DNA from: Thermodesulfobacteriota bacterium
GTDB lineage: Bacteria; Desulfobacterota_D; UBA1144; Nemesobacterales; Mycalebacteriaceae
Direction of reading: 5' to 3'
DNA length: 64,000 nt
Assembly (NCBI GenBank): GCA_965198945.1
Contig: CBDAQI010000010.1
Location: 1-64,000, forward strand
Both the position numbers and the translations under genes were made by a program. Positions within the stretch are counted from its first letter, which is position 1. Each line of letters opens with the position of its first letter. The notes beneath the pieces are model-generated. The model was given only the letters and a program-made list of their open reading frames with translations, did no database searches and was not told the origin of the DNA. Below, piece after piece: positions 5,710 through 42,582 of the stretch.

Positions 5710-6175
5710 AAGGCATTCTCTTTGCCATGCCGGGTTCCCGCTTGCGCGGGAATAACGGGAAAAGTCTCCTCCTCGTCATTCCCGTGGCAACGGGAATCCA
5801 GTATTCATGGCAACGGGAACCACCCGTGGCGTCTCAAAGAAACCCCACAACCGCAGAAAATAAAAATCAAATCTGCAACATTAAAGGCATTCTCCTCGCT
5901 ATGCTGGATTCCCGTCCCCGTCCCCATCCCCGTTTTCACGGGGACATGCTTTCATGAGGACAAGCTTTCACGGGGACAAGCTTGCGCTGGAATGACGGAG
6001 AAAGCCCCCTCCTCGTCATTCCCGTGGCAACGGGAATCCAGTATTCACGGCAACAGGAATTACCCGTGGCGTCTCACGGTAGCCCCACACCGCAGAAAAT
6101 AAAAATCAAATCTGCAACATTAAAGGCATTCTCTTCGCTATGCCGGATTCCCGCTTGCGCGGGAATGACGGAAAA
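5710..6175. repeat. Tandem array (~2.3 units of ~174 bp) of a composite element built from ATTCCC-N8-GGGAAT palindromes
   Basis: cgtcattcccgtggcaacgggaatccagt at ~5775 and ~6014; shared spacer ending aaggcattctc..gctatgc; the middle palindrome carries a 66-bp insert (5915-5980). Confidence 0.9.
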
Positions 6176-6320
6176 AATAAAGAAAATGACGGAGAGGAAA
6201 GAAAATCAAGGAGAAAAAAACGGGAAGGGTCTAAAAGGAATGACGGGAAAGTCCACTCCCGTCACTCCCATTAAATCCGACTTTACCGGGACCGCCCAAA
6301 GCCCCGCCGTTTCTCGCAGC

Positions 6321-9300
6321 TTACCACTGGAAGTTCAGACCGGTCTGCAACAGCCTTTCGTCAAACTCATTAGTTGTCGCCCCGGAGAAGTGGAACTGGA
6401 AGTTGTCGGTCAGCCTCATTCCCACACTGCCGGCAACTCCGTAATCACCCTCGTATTCGGAGAAGTTTATATCCAGACCAATCCGCTTTCCGGGCTCAAC
6501 CGGAGTTGACTTTATAGCGGCCGCCATGGCTATGCCTCTGCCAAGCTTGGCGATGGCCGCGTCATGCTCGTCAATTTTGTCCTGAACCCAGGCGTTGCGC
6601 TCATAGAGGTCGCCGTATCTGATGGGCTCGCTTCCGAGCGGTGTTTCCTGAAGGGCTTCCAGAGTGGCCGAGGTCAGCTGGTTTTGCCCCGCCTCGGTCA
6701 GGAACTCATCCACATTCCTTATGCGTCTCTGGTCGGTATCTTCGGTTCCGGCCACGATATACTCATCTATCAGCCGCATCTCTCTGAGGTTGCTTTCACT
6801 GTCAATTTGCGCCGCGTAGCCCTGCTGTAATGCGGGTGAATTTTGAGAGATATATTCATAAACCGCAATTTTCTCTTCCACGGTGGCAATTCTTTCAATG
6901 CCCCTGCTTAACTCACCGCGACTAAGCCATCCGTCCCCGTTTCCATCATATGTGTTGATCAGATTCCTGATCCGCTGGGCCGGAGTTAAGCCATCCGGGC
7001 CAGTGTTTGTGTCAGTTAAGTCAACGCGCGTACCGAGAACACCATCCACATCAAAACCTGCAATGCGCTGTGAAACATAGTAGTTTCTCTGCTCATAAAG
7101 GTTTCCGGTGCGGTTTATCGTAACTTCCCAACTCCCGTCAGATTGTTGCTGTTCATAAAAGTTCGGGTCGGCGGAAGGCCTGCTTCGAGCACCGAGAGCA
7201 TTCTCCCCCTGCACGACTTCGGTCCGTATCAAAGATTGGTAGGCCGTGGGGTCTCTCTTGAAAGTAACCTGGTCGGCAAGAGACACATACCTGTCACCCA
7301 GAGGATTATTCGTATCCGCAGTATCCGCCCAGCGCTGTCTCTGGAAGTCTGAAGCTCCGACCGCTTCATATGAGTAAGCGGTCTGTCTGAGCAGCGAACC
7401 GTTCGGGTCAGGCGCGGGACGCAGTGAGAGAATACTCTCAACCTGCTGCTGGGTGTAGGAATCTACGCTTGTCTCTTCTGCAAAACTGTTCTGTAAGTCT
7501 TTCAAAGAGTCGCGCTCCTCTTCAATTTCCTTGTTATCTTTAATCTGGTCATTCTCAAGGTAGGCATCCAGAGCCGCAAGATAGGACAGTTGAGCCGCGT
7601 TGGCGGCGGCGTCAGATGAAGTATCAACCGCAGCGACCGTGTTTCTTTCGGTTCTCACTTTCTGTCTGAGCGTTTGAGGACCCTCCGTGTTTCCTATGAG
7701 TTCGTCAATCCCGTCAAAACCGAAGTCCGCGGTCTGCAGAGTCCCGTCCGGCAGAACTGTTGCCACTCTCGTGGCTCCGCCGGCTTCAACGCCCCGGTCT
7801 TTTCTTTCCACAAATCTGCCAAGGGCGGGATCATGCTCCATCTGTGTTATGTATGTCGGTACGCCGTCAGTGCCTTCCGAAGAGTTGGCTGTATAGTAAG
7901 CTTTTTCCTCATAAAGACCAAGCCCCGTGTATCTGTAGTTCAAATCAGCTTCAGCCGGTGTGCCGGTGCCGAAACTGTCTCCGAGTGTGTAATCACGACC
8001 GTCCGCAGTGTCACCGAATGACTGTGTGCCGTCTCTCCTGACCGAGGCTCCCGCTCCGAGCGCCGCGCTTCTGTATGCGTCCGCTGTGGAATTTACACCC
8101 AGCGCCGTTGAGTTGGCCCCGTTTGCAAACGAATGGGCTCCGAAAGCCGATGAGTTATCGCCCGATGCTTCGGTGAAATAACCGATACCCGTTGAAAGGC
8201 TTCCCGTGGCGGAAGTGTTGACACCGGATGCGGTTGCGCCCAGTCCGGTTGACTTTGCGTCTATACCCGCGACAAACGCGCCTTCTGCGGTCGCCCTGAT
8301 ATTTCTTCCGAACGCCACACTGTTGTGGGCATCCGCCGCGGCGTTTCGTCCGATCGCTATTGACGCTTCATGCGTCGCCTTTGCGTTCACACCTATCGCT
8401 ATTGAATCTCTTCCGGATGCGTTCGCTTCATGACCCACGGCCAAACTGTCATCACCGCTTGCACTTGCATTCTGACCGAGGGCCGTTGAATTTGCGCCGC
8501 TCGCACGCGCGTTTCTGCCGAGAACAGTTGAGTTTGCGCCGGAGGCGTTGGAGCCCTGACCCACGGCCGTTGAATTCAATCCGGTTGAAGAGGCGTTCTG
8601 CCCTATGGCCGTTGAATCCGTATTTTGACATAAAGCTCCATGCCCCACGGCCGTTCCGTTTGCATCAGCACAGAAAGCATCCTCACCAACGACCGTTGTG
8701 TTTGTGCCTTGTGCTCTGGCGCTTACACCAACGGCTGTTGAATGCGACCCCGAAGCATTCGCGCTCACACCCACGGCCGTTGTATTTTCGGCGCTGGCTC
8801 TGGCAAGATAACCGAACGCCGATGAGTTTACGCCGCTCGCATTCGCGCCCTTACCCACGGCCGTTGTGTGGATGTTTATAGCATGTGCGCCCTGCCCCAA
8901 AGCCGTTGAAAACAGGCCGAGAGCACTCGCACCCTGACCAAGAGCCGTTGTATCCAACTCAATGGCGGCCGCATTGTGACCTACGGCGGTTGCGTTGGTT
9001 TGCAAAGCAAACGAAAGGGCTCCCAAAGCTGAGGAATTTTCACCCGCCGCTTCACCGTGATAACCTATGGCGGTTGAGTGGTTTCCGGTCGCCTGAGTGC
9101 CTCTGCCGCCTGAATGCGCGCCCAGCCCCGTAGCCTTGCCGTCTATACCCACAATAAATGAACCCTCTCCGGCCGCTCTTATATTTCTTCCGATTGCCAC
9201 ACTGTTGTGTGCAACGGCCTCGGCGTTTCGTCCGATCGCTATTGACGCTTCATGCGTCGCCTTTGCGTTCACACCTATCGCTATTGAATCTCTTCCCGAA

Positions 9301-12300
9301 GCGGTGGCCCTGTGTCCCACGGCCAAACTGTCAATGCCGCTTGCTTCGGCACTCCTGCCGAGAGCCGTTGAGTTTGCGCCGCTCGCAACTGACTGTTGAC
9401 CGAAAGAAGACGAGTCTATACCCGATGCCGCCGAAAATGCTCCTATTGAAGTAGAATCCGTTCCTCTTGCAGCCGCAAGGTAACCCACGGCCGTTGAGTT
9501 TTCTGTTGACGCTTCTGCCGAGGTACCCAGAGCAGTTGACTTCTCAGCCAACGCCTCCGCGTCCCAACCCAAAGCCGTTGCATCCCTTGCGCTTGCTCTT
9601 GAAAAAGCACCTACCGCAGTTGTGTCTCTTGCGGTGGCTCTGGCATCATGACCCACGGCCGTTGAGCTGGAGTCCAAAGCCCTTGAAGCCTCGCCCAAGG
9701 CCGTTGAAGCAGCGCCGCTCGCTTGTGCATCCTGACCCAGCGCTGTTGCTAATCCGCCGGACGCATTTGCACCCTGGCCCACGGCCGTTGAATCTACACC
9801 GGATGCACTCGCACTCCTGCCGAGAGCCGTTGAGGCTGCGCCGCTCGCAACTGACTGTTGACCGAAAGAAGACGAGTCTATACCCGATGCCGCCGAAAAT
9901 GCTCCTATTGAAGTAGAATCCGTTCCTCTTGCAGCCGCAAGGTAACCCACGGCCGTTGAGTTTTCTGTTGACGCTTCTGCCGAGGTACCCAGAGCAGTTG
10001 ACTTCTCAGCCAACGCCTCCGCGTCCCAACCCAAAGCCGTTGCATCCCTTGCGCTTGCTCTTGAAAGAGCACCTACCGCAGTTGTGTCTCTTGCGGTGGC
10101 TCTGGCATCATGACCCACGGCCGTTGAGCTGGAGTCCAAAGCCCTTGAAGCCTCGCCCAAGGCCGTTGAAGCAGCGCCGCTCGCTTGTGCATCCTGACCC
10201 AGCGCTGTTGCTAATCCGCCGGACGCATTTGCACCCTGGCCCACGGCCGTTGAATCTACACCGGATGCACTCGCACTCCTGCCGAGAGCCGTTGAGGCTG
10301 CGCCGCTCGCAACTGACTGTTGACCGAAAGAAGACGAGTCTATACCCGATGCCGCCGAAAATGCTCCTATTGAAGTAGAATCCGTTCCTCTTGCAGCCGC
10401 AAGGTAACCCACGGCCGTTGAGTTTTCTGTTGACGCTTCTGCCGAGGTACCCAGAGCAGTTGACTTCTCAGCCAACGCCTCCGCGTCCCAACCCAAAGCC
10501 GTTGCATCCCTTGCGCTTGCTCTTGAAAGAGCACCTACCGCAGTTGTGTCTCTTGCGGTGGCTCTGGCATCATGACCCACGGCCGTTGAGCTGGAGTCCA
10601 AAGCCCTTGAAGCCTCGCCCAAGGCCGTTGAAGCAGCGCCGCTCGCTTGTGCATCCTGACCCAGCGCTGTTGCTAATCCGCCGGACGCATTTGCACCCTG
10701 GCCCACGGCCGTTGAATCTACACCGGATGCACTCGCACTCCTGCCGAGAGCCGTTGAGGCTGCGCCGCTCGCAACTGACTGTTGACCGAAAGAAGACGAG
10801 TCTATACCCGATGCCGCCGAAAATGCTCCTATTGAAGTAGAATCCGTTCCTCTTGCAGCCGCAAGGTAACCCACGGCCGTTGAGTTTTCTGTTGACGCTT
10901 CTGCCGAGGTACCCAGAGCAGTTGACTTCTCAGCCAACGCCTCCGCGTCCCAACCCAAAGCCGTTGCATCCCTTGCGCTTGCTCTTGAAAAAGCACCTAC
11001 CGCAGTTGTGTCTCTTGCGGTGGCTCTGGCATCATGACCCACGGCCGTTGAGCTGGAGTCCAAAGCCCTTGAAGCCTCGCCCAAGGCCGTTGAAGCAGCG
11101 CCGCTCGCTTGTGCATCCTGACCCAGCGCTGTTGCTAATCCGCCGGACGCATTTGCACCCTGGCCCACGGCCGTTGAATCTACACCGGATGCACTCGCAC
11201 CCTGACCAAGAGCCGTTGTATCCAACTCAATGGCGGCCGCATTGTGACCTACGGCGGTTGCGTTGGTTTGCAAAGCAAACGAAAGGGCTCCCAAAGCTGA
11301 GGAATTTTCACCCGCCGCTTCACCGTGATAACCTATGGCGGTTGAGTGGTTTCCGGTCGCCTGAGTGCCTCTGCCGCCTGAATGCGCGCCCAGCCCCGTA
11401 GCCTTGCCGTCTATACCCACAATAAATGAACCCTCTCCGGCCGCTCTTATATTTCTTCCGATTGCCACACTGTTGTGTGCAACGGCCTCGGCGTTTCGTC
11501 CGATCGCTATTGACGCTTCATGCGTCGCCTTTGCGTTCACACCTATCGCTATTGAATCTCTTCCCGAAGCGGTGGCCCTGTGTCCCACGGCCAAACTGTC
11601 AATGCCGCTTGCTTCGGCTTTCTGACCGAGAGCCGTTGAGTTATAACCTGTTGCTTCCGCTCCTCTACCGAAGGCGCTCGTATTTACATTGGTCGCCCGC
11701 GCAGACTGACCCACAGCAGTCGCATTAACTTGTTCAACCCTTGAGCCTTGACCAATGGCAATTGAGTCTACGGCGGCTGAAGTTGCGGCGGCCTCGTGAC
11801 CCACAACCGTTGAATTTATGCCACTTGCACGCGAATCTTGACCCAGAGCCGTTGTATTGACCTGCTCCGCACGCACACCCTGTCCCAAAGCCGTCGCGTT
11901 TACATGACTCGCATGTGAGCCCGTACCCAAAGCTGTCGTGTTTGCCTGGACGGCGCGCGCAAAATGACCCAAGGCCGTAGCTTTCACACCAGTCGTCGCC
12001 TGCGAAAGCGAACCCACTGCCGTTGAATTTTCAGAGGTCGCCTGTGCTCCCTGACCTACGGCAGTTGCTCTTTTAGCAATTGCCTCAGCCCCCTGACCCA
12101 AAGCCGTCGCATTGGTGGCTCCGGCATTCGCACCCTGTCCCAGTGACGTCGCGTTAGCTGACATTGCATGTGCAAGCCGACCCACTGCCGTTGAATCTAC
12201 ACCGACTGCTTCCGCATCCTGACCCACTGCCGTTGAATTTTCGGCTACGGCATGAGCAAACTGACCCACTGCCGTTGATTTATCACTGGTTGCTTCCGCA

Positions 12301-14561
12301 TCCTGACCCACTGCCGTTGAGCCTACTCCAAATGCATCCGAACGTTCACCAAGAGCGGTTGACTCCTCTTCGCGGGCATTTGCCGCATGACCCAGCGCTG
12401 TTGATCTTTCTCCCAGCGCCGCGGCTTCCTCACCCACGGCCGCCGCGTTTGTGGCGGAAGCAATTGAATCTGCGCCTATCCCAATGGAATGGCTGACCGC
12501 CGCATTCGCCTTATAACCAACGGCAAGTGAGTTTTCATCTTTCGCATGCGCGAGCCTGCCAACGGCAACCGATCTCAAGCCCGCCGCATTCGCTTTCTGG
12601 CCCACAGCCGTCGCCCCCGGCGCGGTTGCGGCCGCATTTTCGCCCAGCGCCGTTGTGTCAGCGCCTATCGCCATTGAACGATAGCCGTAAGCCGTTGCAT
12701 TTATTCCCAGTGCGGCTGAGTTATCACCCATAGCCATGGCATTTCCTCCCATGATGACCGGAGCCTGCTGTTTGATGACGGGAAACGGCCCCCTTCCCAA
12801 GGGGTCATCAGAGGCGACAAACGCGAGAGGCCCTACATTGGCGTTCCTTCCAATAGCTATCCCGCCCGGTGTTAGTACGGCAGCGTTTTGCCCGATTGCT
12901 ATTGATCTTTGTTGTCCGGCATTTGCGCCTTCTCCGATTGCAATTGAGGCTTCACCATCCACAAACGCCTCTTTATCAGAGGGATTGGCCGAAACTTTCA
13001 CAAACCTCTGAGACGGAGGCCTTAAAGCAATCACCGTTGCGTCAGCCAGGTCTTCAAACAGTATGGTTTTATTAAGTATCTTTGCACTTGTTACGGAATC
13101 GTTGGCAAGTTTTTGTCTCGTCACCGCACCGTCCTGAATTTTTGCCGTCGTTACGCTGTCGGCGGCAAGATAGGCACTTGTGAGCTGCTCTATGCGGGAA
13201 ATCTGCCCGTCCCTATTTACTCTGATAAGGCCCGTATCGTCGCCAGAGCGCGCAAGTGACGGAACAACAACCCTGTGCGCGGAGGTTCCAAGAACTATTT
13301 GACGGGCAGCAGTCGTCCGCGCTCCGGCACCTATTGCAACGGAATCCGTGTGAGATGCCAACGCATCCTCGCCAAAAGCCATTGACCGAGCGGCGGACGC
13401 ATTCGCCCCATGACCCAAGGCGATTGACGATTCGGAGACCGCACTCGCATTAGTACCCACTGCCACTGAAGTATCTGCGTACGCATTCGCACTCGCACCT
13501 AGAGCTACCGCAGCTGTGCCAATTGCTTTGGAATCTGAACCCACTGCCGTTGCACGCCCTCTCATTGTAAAGGCAGTCGCACCCACAGCCACCGAATTTT
13601 GGCCGGACGCATTCGCCTTAAAACCCACAGCCACCGAATTTTGGGCCAACGCACTTGCAATATGACCAACGGCGGTTGCACGCCCCACAAAAGAAGGAGG
13701 ACCCGATCTAATTTCACCGGACGCATTTGCATTCTGCCCAACCGCAACCGATCTACTGCCTGCAAAAGCTGCAGTGTCAGATAAGTTGCCGATTTTTACG
13801 AACGGACTACCGCCTCCACCTCGAAGAGCCTGCCTCGCGGCGGGGGAAATGTCATCAATCTGTATTGTGTTGTTTTGTATCTTTGCACTTGTTACGGAAT
13901 CGGCGGAAAGATATTCGCTTGTGAGCTGCTCTATGCGGAAAAGCTGCCCGCTCCTATCTACTCTGACAAGGCCTGTATCGTCGCCAGGGTTCACAAGTGA
14001 CGGAACAACAACTCTGTGCGTGGAGGTTCCAAGAACTATTTGACTGGCGGCAGTCGTCCGTGAAGCGGTACCTATTGCAACGGAATTGTGGTGTGTCGCC
14101 CGGGCATCATAGCCCAGAGCCACTGAATATAAATTTCTGGCTTGCGCTTTGTGACCCAAAGCCGTTGAAAAACGATGGCTAGCTAACGCACCCTGACCCA
14201 AAGCCGTTGCTCCCGCTTCATTTGCAGACGCATAACTCCCCACAGCCAAAGCGTTTGCACCCAGTGCATTCGTATATGCCCCCAATGCCGCTGAATTTAC
14301 TCCCTCAACTCTTGATCTAAAACCAAAAGCCACTGATCGCCCTGAACTGTCGGTTGTAGAGGCTTGCCGACCCACAGCTGTTGATTCAAGACCACCCGCA
14401 TCCGCTGCCGTCCCTACGCATAAGAGCGTTTTAGTAGCAACTTCACCAATACTACAAGTGCCTCCTGTGTTTATGGACTGCGCTTGCGCGTCTTGGATAT
14501 GCAGATTTAAAGAAGAAAAAGTGAATACGGAAATAATGAATAGGGCACTTAAAATTCTCAT
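6321..14561 (-). CDS. Giant YadA-like trimeric autotransporter adhesin (2746 aa)
   Basis: Signal peptide, very many 14-residue head repeats (xSTAVGxxAxA), coiled-coil stalk, C-terminal anchor GIAMAAA...GLNFQW. Confidence 0.93.
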   Translation of the reverse strand: MRILSALFIISVFTFSSLNLHIQDAQAQSINTGGTCSIGEVATKTLLCVGTAADAGGLESTAVGRQASTTDSSGRSVAFGFRSRVEGVNSAALGAYTNALGANALAVGSYASANEAGATALGQGALASHRFSTALGHKAQARNLYSVALGYDARATHHNSVAIGTASRTTAASQIVLGTSTHRVVVPSLVNPGDDTGLVRVDRSGQLFRIEQLTSEYLSADSVTSAKIQNNTIQIDDISPAARQALRGGGGSPFVKIGNLSDTAAFAGSRSVAVGQNANASGEIRSGPPSFVGRATAVGHIASALAQNSVAVGFKANASGQNSVAVGATAFTMRGRATAVGSDSKAIGTAAVALGASANAYADTSVAVGTNASAVSESSIALGHGANASAARSMAFGEDALASHTDSVAIGAGARTTAARQIVLGTSAHRVVVPSLARSGDDTGLIRVNRDGQISRIEQLTSAYLAADSVTTAKIQDGAVTRQKLANDSVTSAKILNKTILFEDLADATVIALRPPSQRFVKVSANPSDKEAFVDGEASIAIGEGANAGQQRSIAIGQNAAVLTPGGIAIGRNANVGPLAFVASDDPLGRGPFPVIKQQAPVIMGGNAMAMGDNSAALGINATAYGYRSMAIGADTTALGENAAATAPGATAVGQKANAAGLRSVAVGRLAHAKDENSLAVGYKANAAVSHSIGIGADSIASATNAAAVGEEAAALGERSTALGHAANAREEESTALGERSDAFGVGSTAVGQDAEATSDKSTAVGQFAHAVAENSTAVGQDAEAVGVDSTAVGRLAHAMSANATSLGQGANAGATNATALGQGAEAIAKRATAVGQGAQATSENSTAVGSLSQATTGVKATALGHFARAVQANTTALGTGSHASHVNATALGQGVRAEQVNTTALGQDSRASGINSTVVGHEAAATSAAVDSIAIGQGSRVEQVNATAVGQSARATNVNTSAFGRGAEATGYNSTALGQKAEASGIDSLAVGHRATASGRDSIAIGVNAKATHEASIAIGRNAEAVAHNSVAIGRNIRAAGEGSFIVGIDGKATGLGAHSGGRGTQATGNHSTAIGYHGEAAGENSSALGALSFALQTNATAVGHNAAAIELDTTALGQGASASGVDSTAVGQGANASGGLATALGQDAQASGAASTALGEASRALDSSSTAVGHDARATARDTTAVGAFSRASARDATALGWDAEALAEKSTALGTSAEASTENSTAVGYLAAARGTDSTSIGAFSAASGIDSSSFGQQSVASGAASTALGRSASASGVDSTAVGQGANASGGLATALGQDAQASGAASTALGEASRALDSSSTAVGHDARATARDTTAVGALSRASARDATALGWDAEALAEKSTALGTSAEASTENSTAVGYLAAARGTDSTSIGAFSAASGIDSSSFGQQSVASGAASTALGRSASASGVDSTAVGQGANASGGLATALGQDAQASGAASTALGEASRALDSSSTAVGHDARATARDTTAVGALSRASARDATALGWDAEALAEKSTALGTSAEASTENSTAVGYLAAARGTDSTSIGAFSAASGIDSSSFGQQSVASGAASTALGRSASASGVDSTAVGQGANASGGLATALGQDAQASGAASTALGEASRALDSSSTAVGHDARATARDTTAVGAFSRASARDATALGWDAEALAEKSTALGTSAEASTENSTAVGYLAAARGTDSTSIGAFSAASGIDSSSFGQQSVASGANSTALGRSAEASGIDSLAVGHRATASGRDSIAIGVNAKATHEASIAIGRNAEAVAHNSVAIGRNIRAAGEGSFIVGIDGKATGLGAHSGGRGTQATGNHSTAIGYHGEAAGENSSALGALSFALQTNATAVGHNAAAIELDTTALGQGASALGLFSTALGQGAHAINIHTTAVGKGANASGVNSSAFGYLARASAENTTAVGVSANASGSHSTAVGVSARAQGTNTTVVGEDAFCADANGTAVGHGALCQNTDSTAIGQNASSTGLNSTAVGQGSNASGANSTVLGRNARASGANSTALGQNASASGDDSLAVGHEANASGRDSIAIGVNAKATHEASIAIGRNAAADAHNSVAFGRNIRATAEGAFVAGIDAKSTGLGATASGVNTSATGSLSTGIGYFTEASGDNSSAFGAHSFANGANSTALGVNSTADAYRSAALGAGASVRRDGTQSFGDTADGRDYTLGDSFGTGTPAEADLNYRYTGLGLYEEKAYYTANSSEGTDGVPTYITQMEHDPALGRFVERKDRGVEAGGATRVATVLPDGTLQTADFGFDGIDELIGNTEGPQTLRQKVRTERNTVAAVDTSSDAAANAAQLSYLAALDAYLENDQIKDNKEIEEERDSLKDLQNSFAEETSVDSYTQQQVESILSLRPAPDPNGSLLRQTAYSYEAVGASDFQRQRWADTADTNNPLGDRYVSLADQVTFKRDPTAYQSLIRTEVVQGENALGARSRPSADPNFYEQQQSDGSWEVTINRTGNLYEQRNYYVSQRIAGFDVDGVLGTRVDLTDTNTGPDGLTPAQRIRNLINTYDGNGDGWLSRGELSRGIERIATVEEKIAVYEYISQNSPALQQGYAAQIDSESNLREMRLIDEYIVAGTEDTDQRRIRNVDEFLTEAGQNQLTSATLEALQETPLGSEPIRYGDLYERNAWVQDKIDEHDAAIAKLGRGIAMAAAIKSTPVEPGKRIGLDINFSEYEGDYGVAGSVGMRLTDNFQFHFSGATTNEFDERLLQTGLNFQW
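9349..11200. repeat. Four near-identical 462-bp (154-aa) tandem repeats inside the adhesin
   Basis: Shadow ORFs recur at 9467, 9929, 10391 and 10853 (462-bp spacing) and differ at one visible position. Confidence 0.95.
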
Positions 14562-17792: not shown

Positions 17793-18075
17793 CCGTCATT
17801 CCCGCGCAAGATTGTCCCCGTGAAAGCTTATCCTCATGAAAGCATGTCCCCGTGAAAACGGGGATGGGGACGGGAATCCGGCATAGCGAAGAGAATGCCT
17901 TTAATCCTTCGGATTCCATTCCTGTTTAATAAGGTTGTGAGACTCCCGTGAGACGCCACTGGTAGTTCCCGTTGGTGTGAATGCGAATACTGGATTCCCG
18001 TTTACACGGGAATGACGAGAGGGGAAGGGAATGACAAGAGAAAGAACGGGAATGGCAGGGGGGAAGGAACGGGAA
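17793..18075. repeat. Composite palindromic element with nested insert plus purine-rich tail
   Basis: Inverted relative of the 5775-5998 element; ends with ggattcccgtttacacgggaatgacg. Confidence 0.85.
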
Positions 18076-19291: not shown

Positions 19292-19440
19292 GCTCCGGAC
19301 TTCATTTTTGTTTCCTGCGGTTATGAGGTTCCCTTGAAACGCCATGGGTAATCCCCTTGCCCGGAATGCCGGATTCCCGTCCCCATCCCCGTTTTCACGG
19401 GGACATGCTTTCATGAAGACAATCTTTCACGGAAATGACG
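19292..19440. repeat. Palindromic element with a 2 x 22-bp nested insert
   Basis: Insert at 19380-19423; the flank ccggacttcatttttgttt is the reverse complement of sequence at ~26481-26499. Confidence 0.85.
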
Positions 19441-22596: not shown

Positions 22597-22765
22597 CGTC
22601 ATTCCCGCTTTTGAGGGAATGACGGAAAAAGTCTCCCTCTCCATTTCCGTTTCTCTATTTCCATAGTCATTTCCGTTCCCGCCCCCCGTCCCCATCCCCG
22701 TTTTCAAGGAGACATGCTTTCATGAGGACAAGCTTTCACGGAGACATGCTTGCACGGCAATGACG
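22597..22765. repeat. Empty palindrome followed by a palindrome with three nested units
   Basis: gtcattcccgcttttgagggaatgac at ~22598; nested insert at ~22682-22748. Confidence 0.85.
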
Positions 22766-24524: not shown

Positions 24525-24742
24525 CGTCATTCCCGCAAAAGCGGGAATCCAGTATAGCAAAGAGAATGCCTTTAACTTCCGGATTTCATTTCTGTTTTCT
24601 AAGGTCGTGCGGCTTCCGCGAGACGCCACTGACAGTCCCCTTTGGTGTGAATACGAATACTGGATTCCCGTTTACACGGGAATGACAAGAGAGGGAAAGG
24701 GAATGACGAGAGAGGGAACGGGAATGACGGGGGAAGGGAAAT
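24525..24742. repeat. ~165-bp composite element with two inverted empty palindromes, followed by three ~21-bp gggaatgac tail repeats
   Basis: cgtcattcccgcaaaagcgggaatcc ... ggattcccgtttacacgggaatgac; spacer similar to 17881-17990. Confidence 0.88.
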
Positions 24743-26404: not shown

Positions 26405-26590
26405 CACCGGAAAGAACAATCCGGTATTCACGGCAATCACAATTACCCGCAACTATCTGACGGAAACCTCAAAACCATAGAAACAAAAATGAAGTCCGGG
26501 GCGTCAAAACAGACTCCTTTCCATGCCGGATTCCCGCACCCGTCCCCACCCCCGTTTTCACGGGGACAAGCTTTCACGAGAATGACGGGG
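26405..26590. repeat. Degenerate composite palindromic element
   Basis: ggattcccg-cacccg-tcccca-cccccg-ttttcacggggacaag-ctttcacgagaatgacg at 26528-26587. Confidence 0.75.
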
Positions 26591-39209: not shown

Positions 39210-39950
39210 TCAGCCATTCCAACGAAAGCATGTCTCCAGTGAAAACCAGGGCGGAGATGGGGTGGAAATCTTCCCCTCCCGTCACTCCCGCAAAAGCATG
39301 TCCCCGTGGAAACGGGGGAGGGAATCCAGTATTTATTAAACACATTGTAGAAAGTCAGTTGTAACACCAAAGTGGAGCGTTTTGTTCTGTCTGTTCTCCG
39401 GGGCGCAGACACAAAGTTGTTTTTGAATAAAGAGTTGCTTTGTTGTCGTTTTCTCTCCACCGGCAGACAACATTGCCTTTGTTGAGTGTCATTTGCTGCA
39501 TTGCCCACGATTCCCACCCGTTTTCACAGGGACAATCTTTCAGGGGAATGAAAGAGAAAATACGGAACTAAACAGAATCGTCTTTTCTCGCTCTCGTCAT
39601 TCCCGTGGAAACGGGAATCCAGTATTAGAAATGACAGAGCATCATTGTTTTCATTATTAGCTATTCTGTGTGAGACACATAATCCGGCATTGAATTAAAT
39701 GTTTTTGCAATCGCCAAAAGTGTATGCAGATAAAAAACTTAGAATCCGCTTTTGTGTTGTCCGTATTTCCATTTGCGCTTAGGCGAAGATGCTATTTCTC
39801 CCTTCAAGTCATTCTGCCTCTGACACGGAATCCGAGGGTTTATGGCAGGACTTGTCGGAATACTGGATTCCCGTTTCCACGGGAATGACGGGAGAAAGGG
39901 GAATGACGGGGAAAGAATTGGGAATGACAGAGAAAATGCAGAAATGAAGA
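39210..39950. repeat. Cluster of ATTCCC-N8-GGGAAT palindromes and spacers
   Basis: One-unit nested copy at 39280-39330; degenerate copies at ~39212 and ~39508; inverted perfect pair at ~39596 and ~39864. Confidence 0.85.
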
Positions 39951-39962
39951 GAAAAGCATCCC

Positions 39963-42285
39963 CTACATCACAAACCTCATTGTAAACAAAACACCCTTTT
40001 CATCAGCGGGATTCAACTCATAGTTCCTGTTCTGAACCGTTATGTCTCCCTTCAACCCCGTGCTGTAGTTAAACTCCACACCGACATCAAAATTCTTCTT
40101 CCGCCTCATAAATGACACTCGCGCCGTCTGCGCATGTCCCCTCGCTGATTTAATCAGTGAATACACGGGATCAACCTCTCCATATGCCGCAGCAGCTCCC
40201 ACTCCTATCCCATATGTGTCGCCCAACCCGAAATACCTGTCAAATGACGCTATCACCTTGTTCGTGTCTCCGAATCTATAGGAACCGCTGCCAACACTGC
40301 CGAAAAAAGAATCCGTCTCTCTTTCAAATGCAACGGAAAATCCGCTCGTGTGCGATATGCCCGCTCTGCCCACTCCGTATTGCCCGTTCATGAAGAAGAA
40401 AGCTCCTTTGAAAAGATGAGCGGCGCTTCCTCCGTCCACAACGGGGACTGACAGATAACCCGAATCGCGGAAGTCAATCATGCTTTTTATACTGTTCCAG
40501 GAGACAGACGGTTCTATGCGCAGGGAAGAAGATGAAGCGGAAAGGGGAACTGAAATTTCATAGTCTCTTGCAAACTCGTTGTTTTCATAGCCCTTTACGA
40601 CAACGGGTTCGGATACAGATGCTCCGGATACGGCTATGTCGCCCCGGGCAACGGGAAGCAATTCAGCTGGGTCAACAAGATCTCCCGTGGGGAGCCAGAT
40701 GGCTGAGACGGAGAATTGACCGCAACCATTAACAGCCGGGTTTCCAAGGTCTATGGCTGTCTCACAGGCAAGTTTTACAAGTTGCCTGTTTGTAAGGTGA
40801 GGCCACACATAGCGGATGTTTACAAGGGTGCCAAATACAAGAGGGGTGGAATAACTTGTGCCGGGAACTTTAAAGTAGGAAACTGTAGTATCAGTGATTT
40901 CCGTTACAACAGTAACCTCATAAGGCGCCAGAACGCAGAAATCTCTTGCATCACCGCAACGGTTTGAATTGCCATGTGCTTCCGGAGTGACTCCTGAGCC
41001 TGTATCTACTACAATGCCATTGCGCAGCTCTATCTTCCGGTAACGCAATGAACCGTCGGTATTTTTCAGAGGCAAGCCTCTGCTGTCTGTAAGAAGGTAG
41101 TTCTGACTGTAGAAAGAATCCTCAAGACCGGCAACCAAAAGAAGTGACCCTGTCATCTCATGAATCTCTCTCAAAGCTTCGGCCCGATGTGCCGGCTGAT
41201 CCGGTGTTGTTTCAAGTCGTAAAATAGGGTGATGATCAAGAGCTACGAAGTCCCGTCTGGTGGAGTCGGGACCAAAATTGCCGGTGCCAACAACAAATAA
41301 AGCTTCGGAATCTCTCACGGCTTCAGGAGCAATCAGATTCACAACCTCACTAGGGTTATCCTGACCGGAAGATCTGAAAAGGTGTGCCCCGGAAATATTG
41401 ACTATTCTTGAAAAAGCTCCCGGCCTTTTGCAAAACAGCCTGCTATCAGAGGGGCTGCAATCATCAGCCAGCTCGTTTACAAAACTCACACTTCGGCCAC
41501 TGGAAGCTCTGTTGTCATAAAATTGAAGGAAATCCGGAAGTGTGGCTATTTCGGCTACTTTGCGCACCCTTGTAGCATGTTGGTCATCTTGTCCGGGGAC
41601 GGCCGGATTATAGTCACTGTCAACTATTATACCGAAAGGTGTAATGGTTTCCCGGGCATCTTTTCTTTGTTGAACTTTTGCCGAGACCTTATCATATAAG
41701 GGAAGCAGCCCGGGAATTCTCCTGCGTTGACAATCAGAACTCCAGAAACGGGAAGGATGGCAGGCAATTTCCCTGCCGGGAACGGCAGGTCCCAAATCAT
41801 AAAACGAAGGAGTACGCTGTAGAGGCACAGACTCCGGTGCCCTCACAGGCTCCGGCAATGGCACGAAGCTCTCAGAAGGGCTTCATCCGAAACTACGGAG
41901 ACCGGGAGTTCCCCGCTCCACCGGCCTTCCCAATATAGGTAAAGACTCCGGTGCCCTCACAGACTCCGGCAATGGCACGAAGCTCTCAGAAGGGCCAACC
42001 GAAACTACGGGACCGGGAGTTCCCCGCTCCACCGGCCTTCCCAATATGGGTAAAGACTCCGGCGCCTTCACAGGTTCGGGCAATGGCACAAAACTCTCAG
42101 GGGGTAAGGGAGGAAGAGGCGCAGGGTTCGGTTGTGAAACAATTTGTCTTACACGCTGCGAAAAACCGGCGGAAGTCTGTGTGGAATCCGGCGCCCGTAT
42201 CGCCGTGCCCCCGCCTCCGCCCGCACATCCTGATAACAGGAAAACCGTGAGCGGCAAAAAAAAATTTGTATCCGCTTATCTTCAC
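39963..42285 (-). pseudogene. Lipoprotein S8 subtilase with autotransporter-like C-terminus, interrupted in this assembly
   Basis: Lipobox LSGC+GGGGG, Pro-rich repeats, IIVDS (Asp), HATRV (His), GTGN (oxyanion), GTSYSTP (Ser), alternating beta-strand C-terminus; in-frame TGA at 41883-41885 and frameshift at the A9 run 42256-42264. Confidence 0.8.
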
Positions 42286-42419: not shown

Positions 42420-42582
42420 AGGTGTTTTATTCCGCTTGTCCGCCGGACAACTTTTTAATAATACGTTGCCTTTTCTCCGCTGGCAGACAGCATTGTTTTT
42501 ATTAAGTCATGAATTGCCTTGCTCCGGATTCCCTTCCCCCATCCCAGTTTTCATGAGGACAAGCTTGCACGGCCGATGACGG
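42420..42582. repeat. Degenerate palindromic element with a spacer related to 39380-39550
   Basis: Shared ggcagaca(a/g)cattg..ttt..tt.agt block followed by gattccc and nested units. Confidence 0.65.

Follow-up and report, generated by a model that had tools for sequence, protein, structure and literature searches.

Nested copies of a 22-nucleotide hairpin module within the loops of NTS/dRS3-type hairpins of a Thermodesulfobacteriota genome

The window analyzed here, a stretch of 64,000 nucleotides (nt) at the start of contig CBDAQI010000010.1 of a Thermodesulfobacteriota bacterium (1.39 Mb in 14 contigs, 95% complete), contains a family of short palindromes in which a 22-nt hairpin module occupies the loop of a larger hairpin and, at some sites, the loop of another copy of itself. 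The focal example lies in a region (5710–6320) composed of three tandem repeat copies, which are spaced 174 and 239 nt apart from start to start, and flanked by two convergent open reading frames (ORFs). Alignment of the three copies reveals one 66-column block, present in copy 2 only and absent from copies 1 and 3, with identical ...GGATTCCCG and CTTGCGC... bordering it on either side and without any flanking duplication. The sequence reads GGATTCCCG (5906–5914), the left 6-mers TCCCCG TCCCCA TCCCCG (5915–5932), the right 16-mers TTTTCACGGGGACATG CTTTCATGAGGACAAG CTTTCACGGGGACAAG (5933–5980), and CTTGCGCTGGAATGACG (5981–5997). The initial annotation read this array as three nested 22-bp mini-palindromes; the alignment agrees, and so does the parse, in which the 66-nt block divides into three nested 22-nt units and the empty outer hairpin is 26 nt. 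The distance between the host arms follows as 6 + 6·nL + 16·nR for nL left and nR right units, and is 72 nt at the focal site. As single-stranded DNA (ssDNA), positions 5904–5998 are predicted to fold into concentric helices on either strand (−20.4 kcal/mol for the plus strand and −22.0 kcal/mol for the minus strand; z = −3.3 and −3.7).

The abundance of this palindrome family is not due to chance. The window has 10 matches to ATTCCC-N0-30-GGGAAT where 0.21 are expected, and 0 of 100 shuffles reached 10; TTTCACGGGGACA is present in 13 copies in the genome against approximately 0 expected from its composition. Logan contigs that hold the focal region, from four public runs of one study, end or branch inside the repeats, so that the exact unit count at each locus is that of the assembly. 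A contig joint bypassing 5849–6089 was seen in a single low-depth run only and was not taken as evidence.

The outer hairpin belongs to a known family. Chenal et al. 2025 (PMC11893778) describe the 28-nt Neisseria Transformation Sequence (NTS), CGTCATTCCCGCGMAVGCGGGAATCYRG, which contains dRS3, together with SsnA, a 94-amino acid (aa) single-domain GIY-YIG protein that binds NTS solely as ssDNA, on one strand, and cuts a few bases upstream of it. In the account given there, SsnA tolerates any loop in vitro, even one that is removed or extended, does not act on RNA, and has homologs in many phyla together with Ssn-related motifs (SRMs) that usually flank the genes; on how NTS and SRM copies multiply, the text of that paper goes no further than an insertion sequence (IS)-like hypothesis (PMC11893778). 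The NTS consensus has five exact matches in the present genome, seven with up to one mismatch (the search rule of PMC11893778) and 27 with up to three. The matches within the window are at 24525 (+) and 6170 (−), and the filled focal host departs from the consensus only in what its loop contains and in one base of an arm; the minus strand of the focal site is the published NTS-forward, Ssn-cleavable strand. The dRS3 core, ATTCCC-N8-GGGAAT, is present in 33 copies in the genome, and these together with the consensus matches place the host palindrome in the NTS family by sequence, upholding its initial assignment to dRS3: the outer hairpin is an already known NTS/dRS3-type Ssn-related motif. Empty hairpins of the form GGATTCCC(G/A)-N6-(C/T)GGGAATGAC number 27 exact copies, or 33 under a looser rule, and the asymmetric orienting flanks (CGTC upstream and a C after the palindrome) are present as well, with YTGGATTCCCG-N6-CGGGAATGACG likewise found in 27 exact copies and 33 under looser matching. 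The published degenerate SRM pattern did not discriminate (16 matches, compared with 4–13 in five shuffles) and was not used.

The outer hairpin is present exactly in 7 of 31 related genomes, this one counted, and three of the relatives have their own lineage-specific loop contents of 8–15 nt. G011, G023 and G020, all of the same order, share the identical outer stem GGATTCCCG..CGGGAATGAC with loops filled by their own 8–15-nt sequences; about 42 copies of a CTCAGAWGACTTG-like loop are found in G011 and 16 copies of a ATAAAGACATT-like loop in G023.

The module that fills these hairpins in the present genome is TCCCCG TTTTCA CGGGGA CAWG, 22 nt in length, and it is positioned within the host loop directly 3′ of the 5′ arm (plus strand). 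It resembles a shortened NTS, and because its own loop offers the same CCCG/TTTTCA/CGGG site, modules can sit inside modules. We count 22 filled loci in the genome, in a table curated by eye because the automatic parser, which recovers 19, misses three degenerate ones (C10:22701, C4:40944 and C1:104467, where C denotes a contig of this genome). An earlier permissive scan for left and right arms gave 364 rows, mostly noise, of which only the 6-nt peak was used, and was replaced by anchored parsing.

The filled loci have several features in common. First, most are balanced (15–16 of 22: eight with one left and one right unit, four or five with two of each, and three with three of each), and the remaining six are unbalanced in steps of 6 or 16 nt, three with an excess of left units (C1:264613 and window positions 26528 and 42526) and three with an excess of right units (window position 17794, C12:97936 and C13:241902). 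The empty, one-, two- and three-unit and unbalanced loci singled out by the initial annotation are all present with the unit numbers that it gave. Second, the order of the unit variants by depth is shared by nine multi-unit loci, with G/CGGGGA/CATG innermost and A/TGAGGA/CAAG second, and is reversed in one. Two-unit loci have the inner plus the second type in every case, single units are mostly G/CGGGGA/CAAG, and five loci with differing host arms and flanks have an identical inner unit. Third, the innermost loops begin with T in 21 of 22 loci and the displaced host loops with C in 20 of 22. Finally, the fourth base of the host 3′ arm (CGG-G-AAT) is altered in 11 of 22 filled hairpins (CGGA in five, CGGC in three, CGGT in two and CGAA in one) and in 0 of 33 empty ones. 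At C11:61852, a host with reversed flanks, the altered base tracks the orientation of the unit, lying on its 3′ side, and unit orientation follows the preceding arm even under such reversed asymmetric host flanks. A metagenome scan for GGACAWGCTTTCAYGRGGACA, a junction specific to this genome, gave 0 matches.

Two tests bear on whether whole modules are nested or the arms have slipped separately. Nesting of a whole module (ab → aabb) demands that the left period plus the right period equal the length of the module, a constraint that independent slippage does not impose. In 88 parsed nesting steps (these, and the counts given below for a genome set and a metagenome set, are among the matches listed) the left and right periods are (6,16) twelve times, (7,15) 73 times, (6,15) three times and (7,16) never; eight of the (6,16) steps are in this genome and four in one metagenome family. 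Accordingly 85 of the 88 sum to 22, in at least two registers, in line with the 22-bp quantum initially proposed. The other test compares the last base of each left unit (G/A) with the first base of the right stem (C/T). At matched depth these are concordant in 14 of 15 cases in this genome, in 10 of 12 in the genome set and in 130 of 141 in the metagenome set, compared with 4 of 15, 6 of 12 and 98 of 141, respectively, for a depth-rotated control; the A-T pair noted at the outset in the middle focal unit, where the others have G-C, is an instance of this covariation. There are 36 loci of mixed type, of which 23 are fully concordant, 13 partially so and none fully swapped, and the concordant ones occur in both orders (GA/CT in 12 and AG/TC in five, plus three-deep cases). 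Within flank families the founder type is outermost and the inner types vary: in one family 12 of 13 multi-level loci have A as the outermost left unit, and in another 24 of 25 have G. Entry of new units from the inside would produce such a pattern. On both tests, nesting of whole modules is a better explanation than slippage of each arm on its own.

The 19-nt core of the unit was found only in this genome among the 31 relatives, and in one of 120 genomes of the phylum. A scan of prokaryotes at one genome per species returned at least 110 stretches with this core, but approximately 70 chance matches are expected for the pattern in 596 billion bases (our own arithmetic), and therefore single matches are not evidence; only multi-copy genomes and matches inside host arms were used. 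Among the matches listed, the unit is located inside NTS-type arms in Dehalococcoidia, other Chloroflexi, Poribacteria, Omnitrophota, Schekmanbacteria, Saccharibacteria, a cyanobacterium and others, and five unrelated genomes contain 30, 136, 44, 18 and 33 unit copies against 0 for a reversed-pattern control. A metagenome scan requiring two left units yielded at least 128 contigs with nests two to four deep, which, among the matches listed, lie within several different host palindromes or are free-standing. By these matches the module is widespread outside this phylum, and it is probably foreign to this lineage and probably acquired horizontally; its presence in many phyla but in only one of 120 genomes here suggests that a very small DNA element has spread horizontally. 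Searches of the literature for the unit sequence, for nested REPs with RAYT and for Ssn found no account of a nested 22-nt module, and the main text of the Ssn paper uses none of the words 'nested', 'inserted' and 'tandem' (PMC11893778). The outer hairpin is known, and the self-nested module is new, being undescribed in the literature searched; the initial annotation likewise knew of no description.

The hairpin loci of the window are collected in Table 1. The 2746-aa ORF at 6321–14561 (−) ends beside the focal hairpin array, and antisense ORFs recur every 462 nt within it (9467, 9929, 10391 and 10853), which suggests long internal tandem repeats. Further along the window, the segment at 39293–40600 is a 1.3-kb repeat, 99.9% identical to C13:240614-241921, with one boundary inside a unit-bearing hairpin. 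It is also partly 100% identical to C4:37551-38343 and C11:29442-29751, and spans the 3′ part of a surface-protein-like 633-aa ORF (39963–41864, −). Between 39865 and 39960 the right half-site (G)GGGAATGAC alone recurs two or three more times at intervals of about 18–24 nt after a full hairpin, and in the congener G002 (C1:1388698-1390742) such half-sites form arrays with a period of 22–24 nt.

Table 1. Hairpin loci in the 64,000-nt window.
Feature	Position	Strand	Remarks
Empty host hairpin, tandem copy 1	5732..5757	+	variant GGGTTCCCG..CGGGAATAACG
Empty NTS-type hairpin	5775..5799	−	opposite orientation
Focal composite, NTS-type host hairpin with three nested 22-nt units	5906..5997	+	host arms 5906-5914 and 5987-5993; displaced loop 5981-5986
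Empty NTS-type hairpin	6015..6039	−	opposite orientation
Empty host hairpin, tandem copy 3	6145..6170	+	published NTS consensus with ≤1 mismatch on minus strand
Composite, 2 left/3 right units (right excess)	17794..17879	−	left flank family as in focal copy
Empty NTS-type hairpin	17992..18016	+	
Composite, 2 left/2 right units	19371..19440	+	host 3′ arm CGGAAAT
Composite, 3 left (one of 7 nt)/3 right units	22674..22765	+	host 3′ arm CGGCAAT
Empty NTS-type hairpin	24525..24550	−	published NTS consensus with ≤1 mismatch
Empty NTS-type hairpin	24662..24686	+	
Composite, 3 left units/1 right unit (left excess)	26528..26587	+	
Host hairpin with 1 unit	39280..39327	−	boundary of 1.3-kb repeat falls inside; 99.9% identical copy on contig C13
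Degenerate host with 1 unit	39508..39552	+	left part 5 nt
Empty NTS-type hairpin	39596..39620	−	
Empty NTS-type hairpin	39865..39889	+	followed by iterated GGGAATGAC half-sites
Degenerate composite, 2 irregular left units/1 right unit	42526..42581	+	

Small GIY-YIG genes are found close to hairpins of this kind in other genomes. In 10 of 21 regions fetched, the distance between NTS hairpins and such genes is no more than about 700 nt; in G020, a relative of the same order, two inverted NTS copies bracket a small GIY-YIG gene, and in G032, a Brocadiaceae metagenome-assembled genome (MAG) with 136 unit copies, one copy of an Ssn-like gene has unit-type hairpins at both ends. Candidate motif-flanked, single-domain GIY-YIG ssnA genes (cd10448) are present in the relative G020 and in G034 and G035, and none was found in this 95% complete genome. 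Homologs of the one small GIY-YIG protein of this genome are encoded by 4 of 7 hairpin-bearing relatives and by 3 of 24 others. The cut made by SsnA is 5 nt 5′ of GTC, as derived from a 75-nt substrate and a 20-nt product (Supplementary data 8, PMC11893778), and the module ends 4 nt past GAC, the opposite strand of which reads GTC. Its boundary is thus within one base of the expected position, and from this geometry an Ssn-type cut could fall at the module boundary.

The initial annotation had named three kinds of enzyme to look for, and none of them fared well in this genome. The sole small GIY-YIG gene (C1:366685-366915), whose protein has UPF0213 proteins as its best solved relatives, is located within a type I restriction-modification locus and has neither NTS nor units at its sides. 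A single RAYT-like HUH gene (C11:6417-7259; L001:994-1839, minus) scores 75.8 bits with NCBIfam REP_Tyr_transpos against a cut-off of 80; it is separated from its neighbors by gaps of 15 and 60 nt that contain no hairpin copies, and among relatives it is present in 21 of 31 (5 of 7 hairpin-bearing and 16 of 24 hairpin-free), so that it is neither flanked by the repeats nor found to co-occur with the hairpin. A search of solved structures with the RAYT-like protein gave no match. The gene looks domesticated and unrelated to the hairpins. No IS110/Piv gene was found, the IS110 DEDD domain (PF01548) having 0 matches in the 95% complete genome and matches in control genomes. No Y1 gene associated with the 22-nt module was found, and a tblastn search with the GIY-YIG and RAYT-like proteins of this genome against the flanks of unit loci (300–400 nt only) gave no match.

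There are additional observations on these genes and their relatives. The GIY-YIG gene (C1:366680-366915; L130:1462-1695, minus) sits between hsdM-like and hsdS-like genes, has a 12-bp inverted repeat just downstream, and its C-terminal motif continues in another frame near the 3′ end, probably through a one-base slip or a real frameshift. The RAYT-like protein is single-copy, has a C-terminal helix-turn-helix, is encoded between a ccmC-like gene and a small ORF, and is 67–74% identical to its counterparts in four of five congeners. The 4.8-kb contig C9 (L132; 1936-2516 and 4080-4660) has six NTS-type hairpins within 600 nt and, about 1.8 kb from them, a frameshifted gene for a zinc-ribbon and GIY-YIG protein (a weak Pfam match of 19 bits). 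In L266 (G032:C120), a unit at 1022-1049 lies within the 3′ end of an Ssn-like gene and replaces C-terminal residues that are conserved in homologs; the contig ends there.

How might the nesting have arisen? The best-supported origin is insertion of whole modules into hairpin loops, a reading on which our confidence is evenly balanced and whose support comes mainly from other genomes. In G032, near-identical flanks just after an NTS upstream of the multi-copy Ssn-like gene surround a site that is empty in one gene copy, has an additional 24-nt hairpin in two and an additional 44-nt two-deep nest in one. A whole module, or a ready-nested composite of 44 or 66 nt, would be inserted into a hairpin loop in one orientation and without target duplication, probably on ssDNA, by an enzyme acting in trans, with an Ssn-type GIY-YIG nuclease plus host repair as leading candidate and an HUH enzyme as the second. 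The module would have entered this lineage horizontally, and its copies here would mostly be relics, composites having been copied as blocks and then eroded by slippage through the loss or gain of single 6-nt left or 16-nt right arms. Copying of ready-made composites followed by such erosion is suggested by the depth-specific variants that different loci have in common and by the imbalance of six loci; slippage between 16-nt repeats fits these six as well as chimeras like the one with a single right unit at 26528. Much of the variation between loci of this genome, in which nine loci have a shared depth order and 6 of 22 filled loci are unbalanced, thus departs from the initial picture of single units inserted repeatedly, locus by locus. 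The counter-case named with it, one ancestral three-unit copy modified by slippage, comes close to describing the variation within this genome, but not the origin of the nesting, for which other genomes support insertion.

A bolder proposal sees in the 22-nt hairpin a mobile DNA module that targets itself and may be the smallest known, served in trans by an Ssn-type GIY-YIG nuclease; we regard this as possible but put it forward tentatively. The module would be cut out or copied as ssDNA at the foot of its own hairpin and placed into any hairpin loop with a CCCG/TTTTCA/CGGG core, its own included, with composites of 22, 44 and 66 nt moving as blocks and crossing phyla with the nuclease gene.

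Several points weigh against these proposals. No insertion event is polarized, and each pair of empty and filled sites could equally reflect a precise deletion; the congeners, at 56–63% protein identity for a neighboring gene, are too distant for orthologous empty and filled sites to be compared. No cognate nuclease gene with NTS or units beside it was found in this 95% complete genome, and joining of DNA is not known for GIY-YIG nucleases. The module boundary is known to within 1 nt and its register is not fixed further: the focal paralogs favor a TCCCCG...CAAG block at CCCG^CTTGCG, and the rule of an innermost T and a displaced C favors a register shifted by one base. The shared depth order could stem from one ancestral three-deep copy, and fits the movement of blocks of 22, 44 or 66 nt and an ancestral composite with losses equally. 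Unbalanced forms are common, with (2,1) found 15 times and (3,1) twice compared with four cases of (2,2) in the unbiased genome set, and (2,1) 39 times compared with 54 of (2,2) in the metagenome set, so that changes of single arms are frequent. Moreover, loci within a family are not independent of each other, so that the counts exceed the true number of separate events.

These same imbalances are what would be expected if the left arms of 6–7 nt and the right arms of 15–16 nt simply changed separately by slippage, with selection for hairpin stability keeping them in balance. Imbalance occurs in both directions (three left-excess and three right-excess among the 22 loci), the (2,1) form is recurrent in both sets (15 and 39 among the matches listed), the related metagenome loci L139 and L262 differ by one extra left 6-mer only, and many two-deep loci have two identical units, GG/CC. 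It nonetheless seems unlikely that slippage is the whole explanation. The period sum of 22 in 85 of 88 steps, in two registers, would be left unexplained, as would the 23 mixed loci that are concordant with nesting and never swapped; slipped duplicates should equal their neighbors, yet GA/CT and AG/TC are frequent; and the first duplication of 6 or 16 nt would have had no existing repeat to slip on. An account confined to this genome, in which one ancestral three-deep composite was dispersed as a whole element and all other states are deletions, with no module-wise insertion, we likewise judge improbable, although it draws on the same variant depth order in nine loci, on the alteration of the fourth base of the 3′ arm in half of the filled but none of the empty hairpins, and on the locus at 26528, whose three left units and one right unit are the chimera expected from collapse of right units 1–3. 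It is harder to reconcile with an identical inner unit in five loci with different host arms and flanks, with the reverse order at C12:97936 and the reversed host flanks at C11:61852, with the position of the filled focal copy between two empty tandem paralogs, and with the two-unit loci, which invariably combine the inner and second types, as if smaller nests move as blocks.

That the composites are instead selected structures unconnected with mobility, such as terminators or attenuators, RNA elements or protein-binding arrays, would suit the focal array's position between two convergent ORFs, a fold more stable than that of shuffled sequences and a depth covariation that preserves pairs. We consider this very unlikely, since local regulation does not explain why a 22-nt sequence should recur across many phyla, inside several host palindromes unrelated to one another, at 18–136 copies per genome; a search of the whole window against Rfam found no family, and SsnA is reported to have no action on RNA (PMC11893778). 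Least credible of all is that the unit counts or the nesting itself are produced by mis-joined short repeats during assembly. The Logan contigs of all four runs break or branch inside the repeats, and the inner units are identical between loci over up to about 50 nt, but an architecture two to four deep recurs in at least 128 independent metagenome contigs, nests are also present in named MAGs and in chromosomes from other projects, and this genome alone has three separate three-deep loci.

If the 22-nt hairpin is a self-targeting module, it would reveal how NTS/dRS3-type repeats multiply. Nested copies constitute a natural record of the step by which NTS, dRS3 and SRM hairpins multiply; they suggest that one hairpin can receive an entire hairpin module in its loop. 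With quantum (22 nt), site and orientation all fixed, this step is open to experiment using oligonucleotides and one small protein. The nested copies also show the loop of an Ssn recognition hairpin in natural use as a cargo site, a use that bears on the proposed application of Ssn enzymes as programmable tools for single-stranded DNA.

Among known systems, the closest counterpart is NTS/SRM with SsnA. The outer hairpin matches the NTS consensus with its dRS3 core and asymmetric CGTC flank, and in both cases there are intergenic clusters, a variable loop and a distribution over several phyla (PMC11893778); hairpins flank small GIY-YIG genes in G020 and other genomes, as they do in that system. 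The differences are that the published motifs are single hairpins of 20–50 nt (PMC11893778), whereas here the loop contains one to three concentric copies of a second, 22-nt module, and that an NTS-flanked ssnA gene was not found in this genome. The palindrome itself is the same one that is the insertion target of IS110/Piv-type recombinases ('a specific phage recombinase', PMC11893778), but the DEDD domain was not found here, and the inserted unit is 22 nt and gene-free. REP, BIME and REPIN sequences with their RAYTs are likewise short palindromes outside genes, present in tens of copies and presumably mobilized in trans as single-stranded hairpins. REPINs, however, are inverted hairpin pairs in contrast to the concentric, self-nested units described here, and the RAYT-like gene of this genome has no repeat flanks and is present in relatives regardless of the repeat. 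Members of the IS200/IS605 family and their gene-less derivatives insert strand-specifically by a short target, without target-site duplication, through hairpins and single strands, and are hundreds of bases long with separate left- and right-end hairpins. The 66-nt block shares with them oriented insertion without a target-site duplication, but consists of units that are each a single 22-nt hairpin, with no associated Y1 transposase found. Finally, the Neisseria NIMEs, RS elements bounded by dRS3, resemble the focal mosaic in its blocks of about 174–240 bp, its dRS3-type bounds and the presence of both orientations; as described, NIMEs have their repeats between dRS3 copies, whereas the hairpins reported here are inside the dRS3 spacer.

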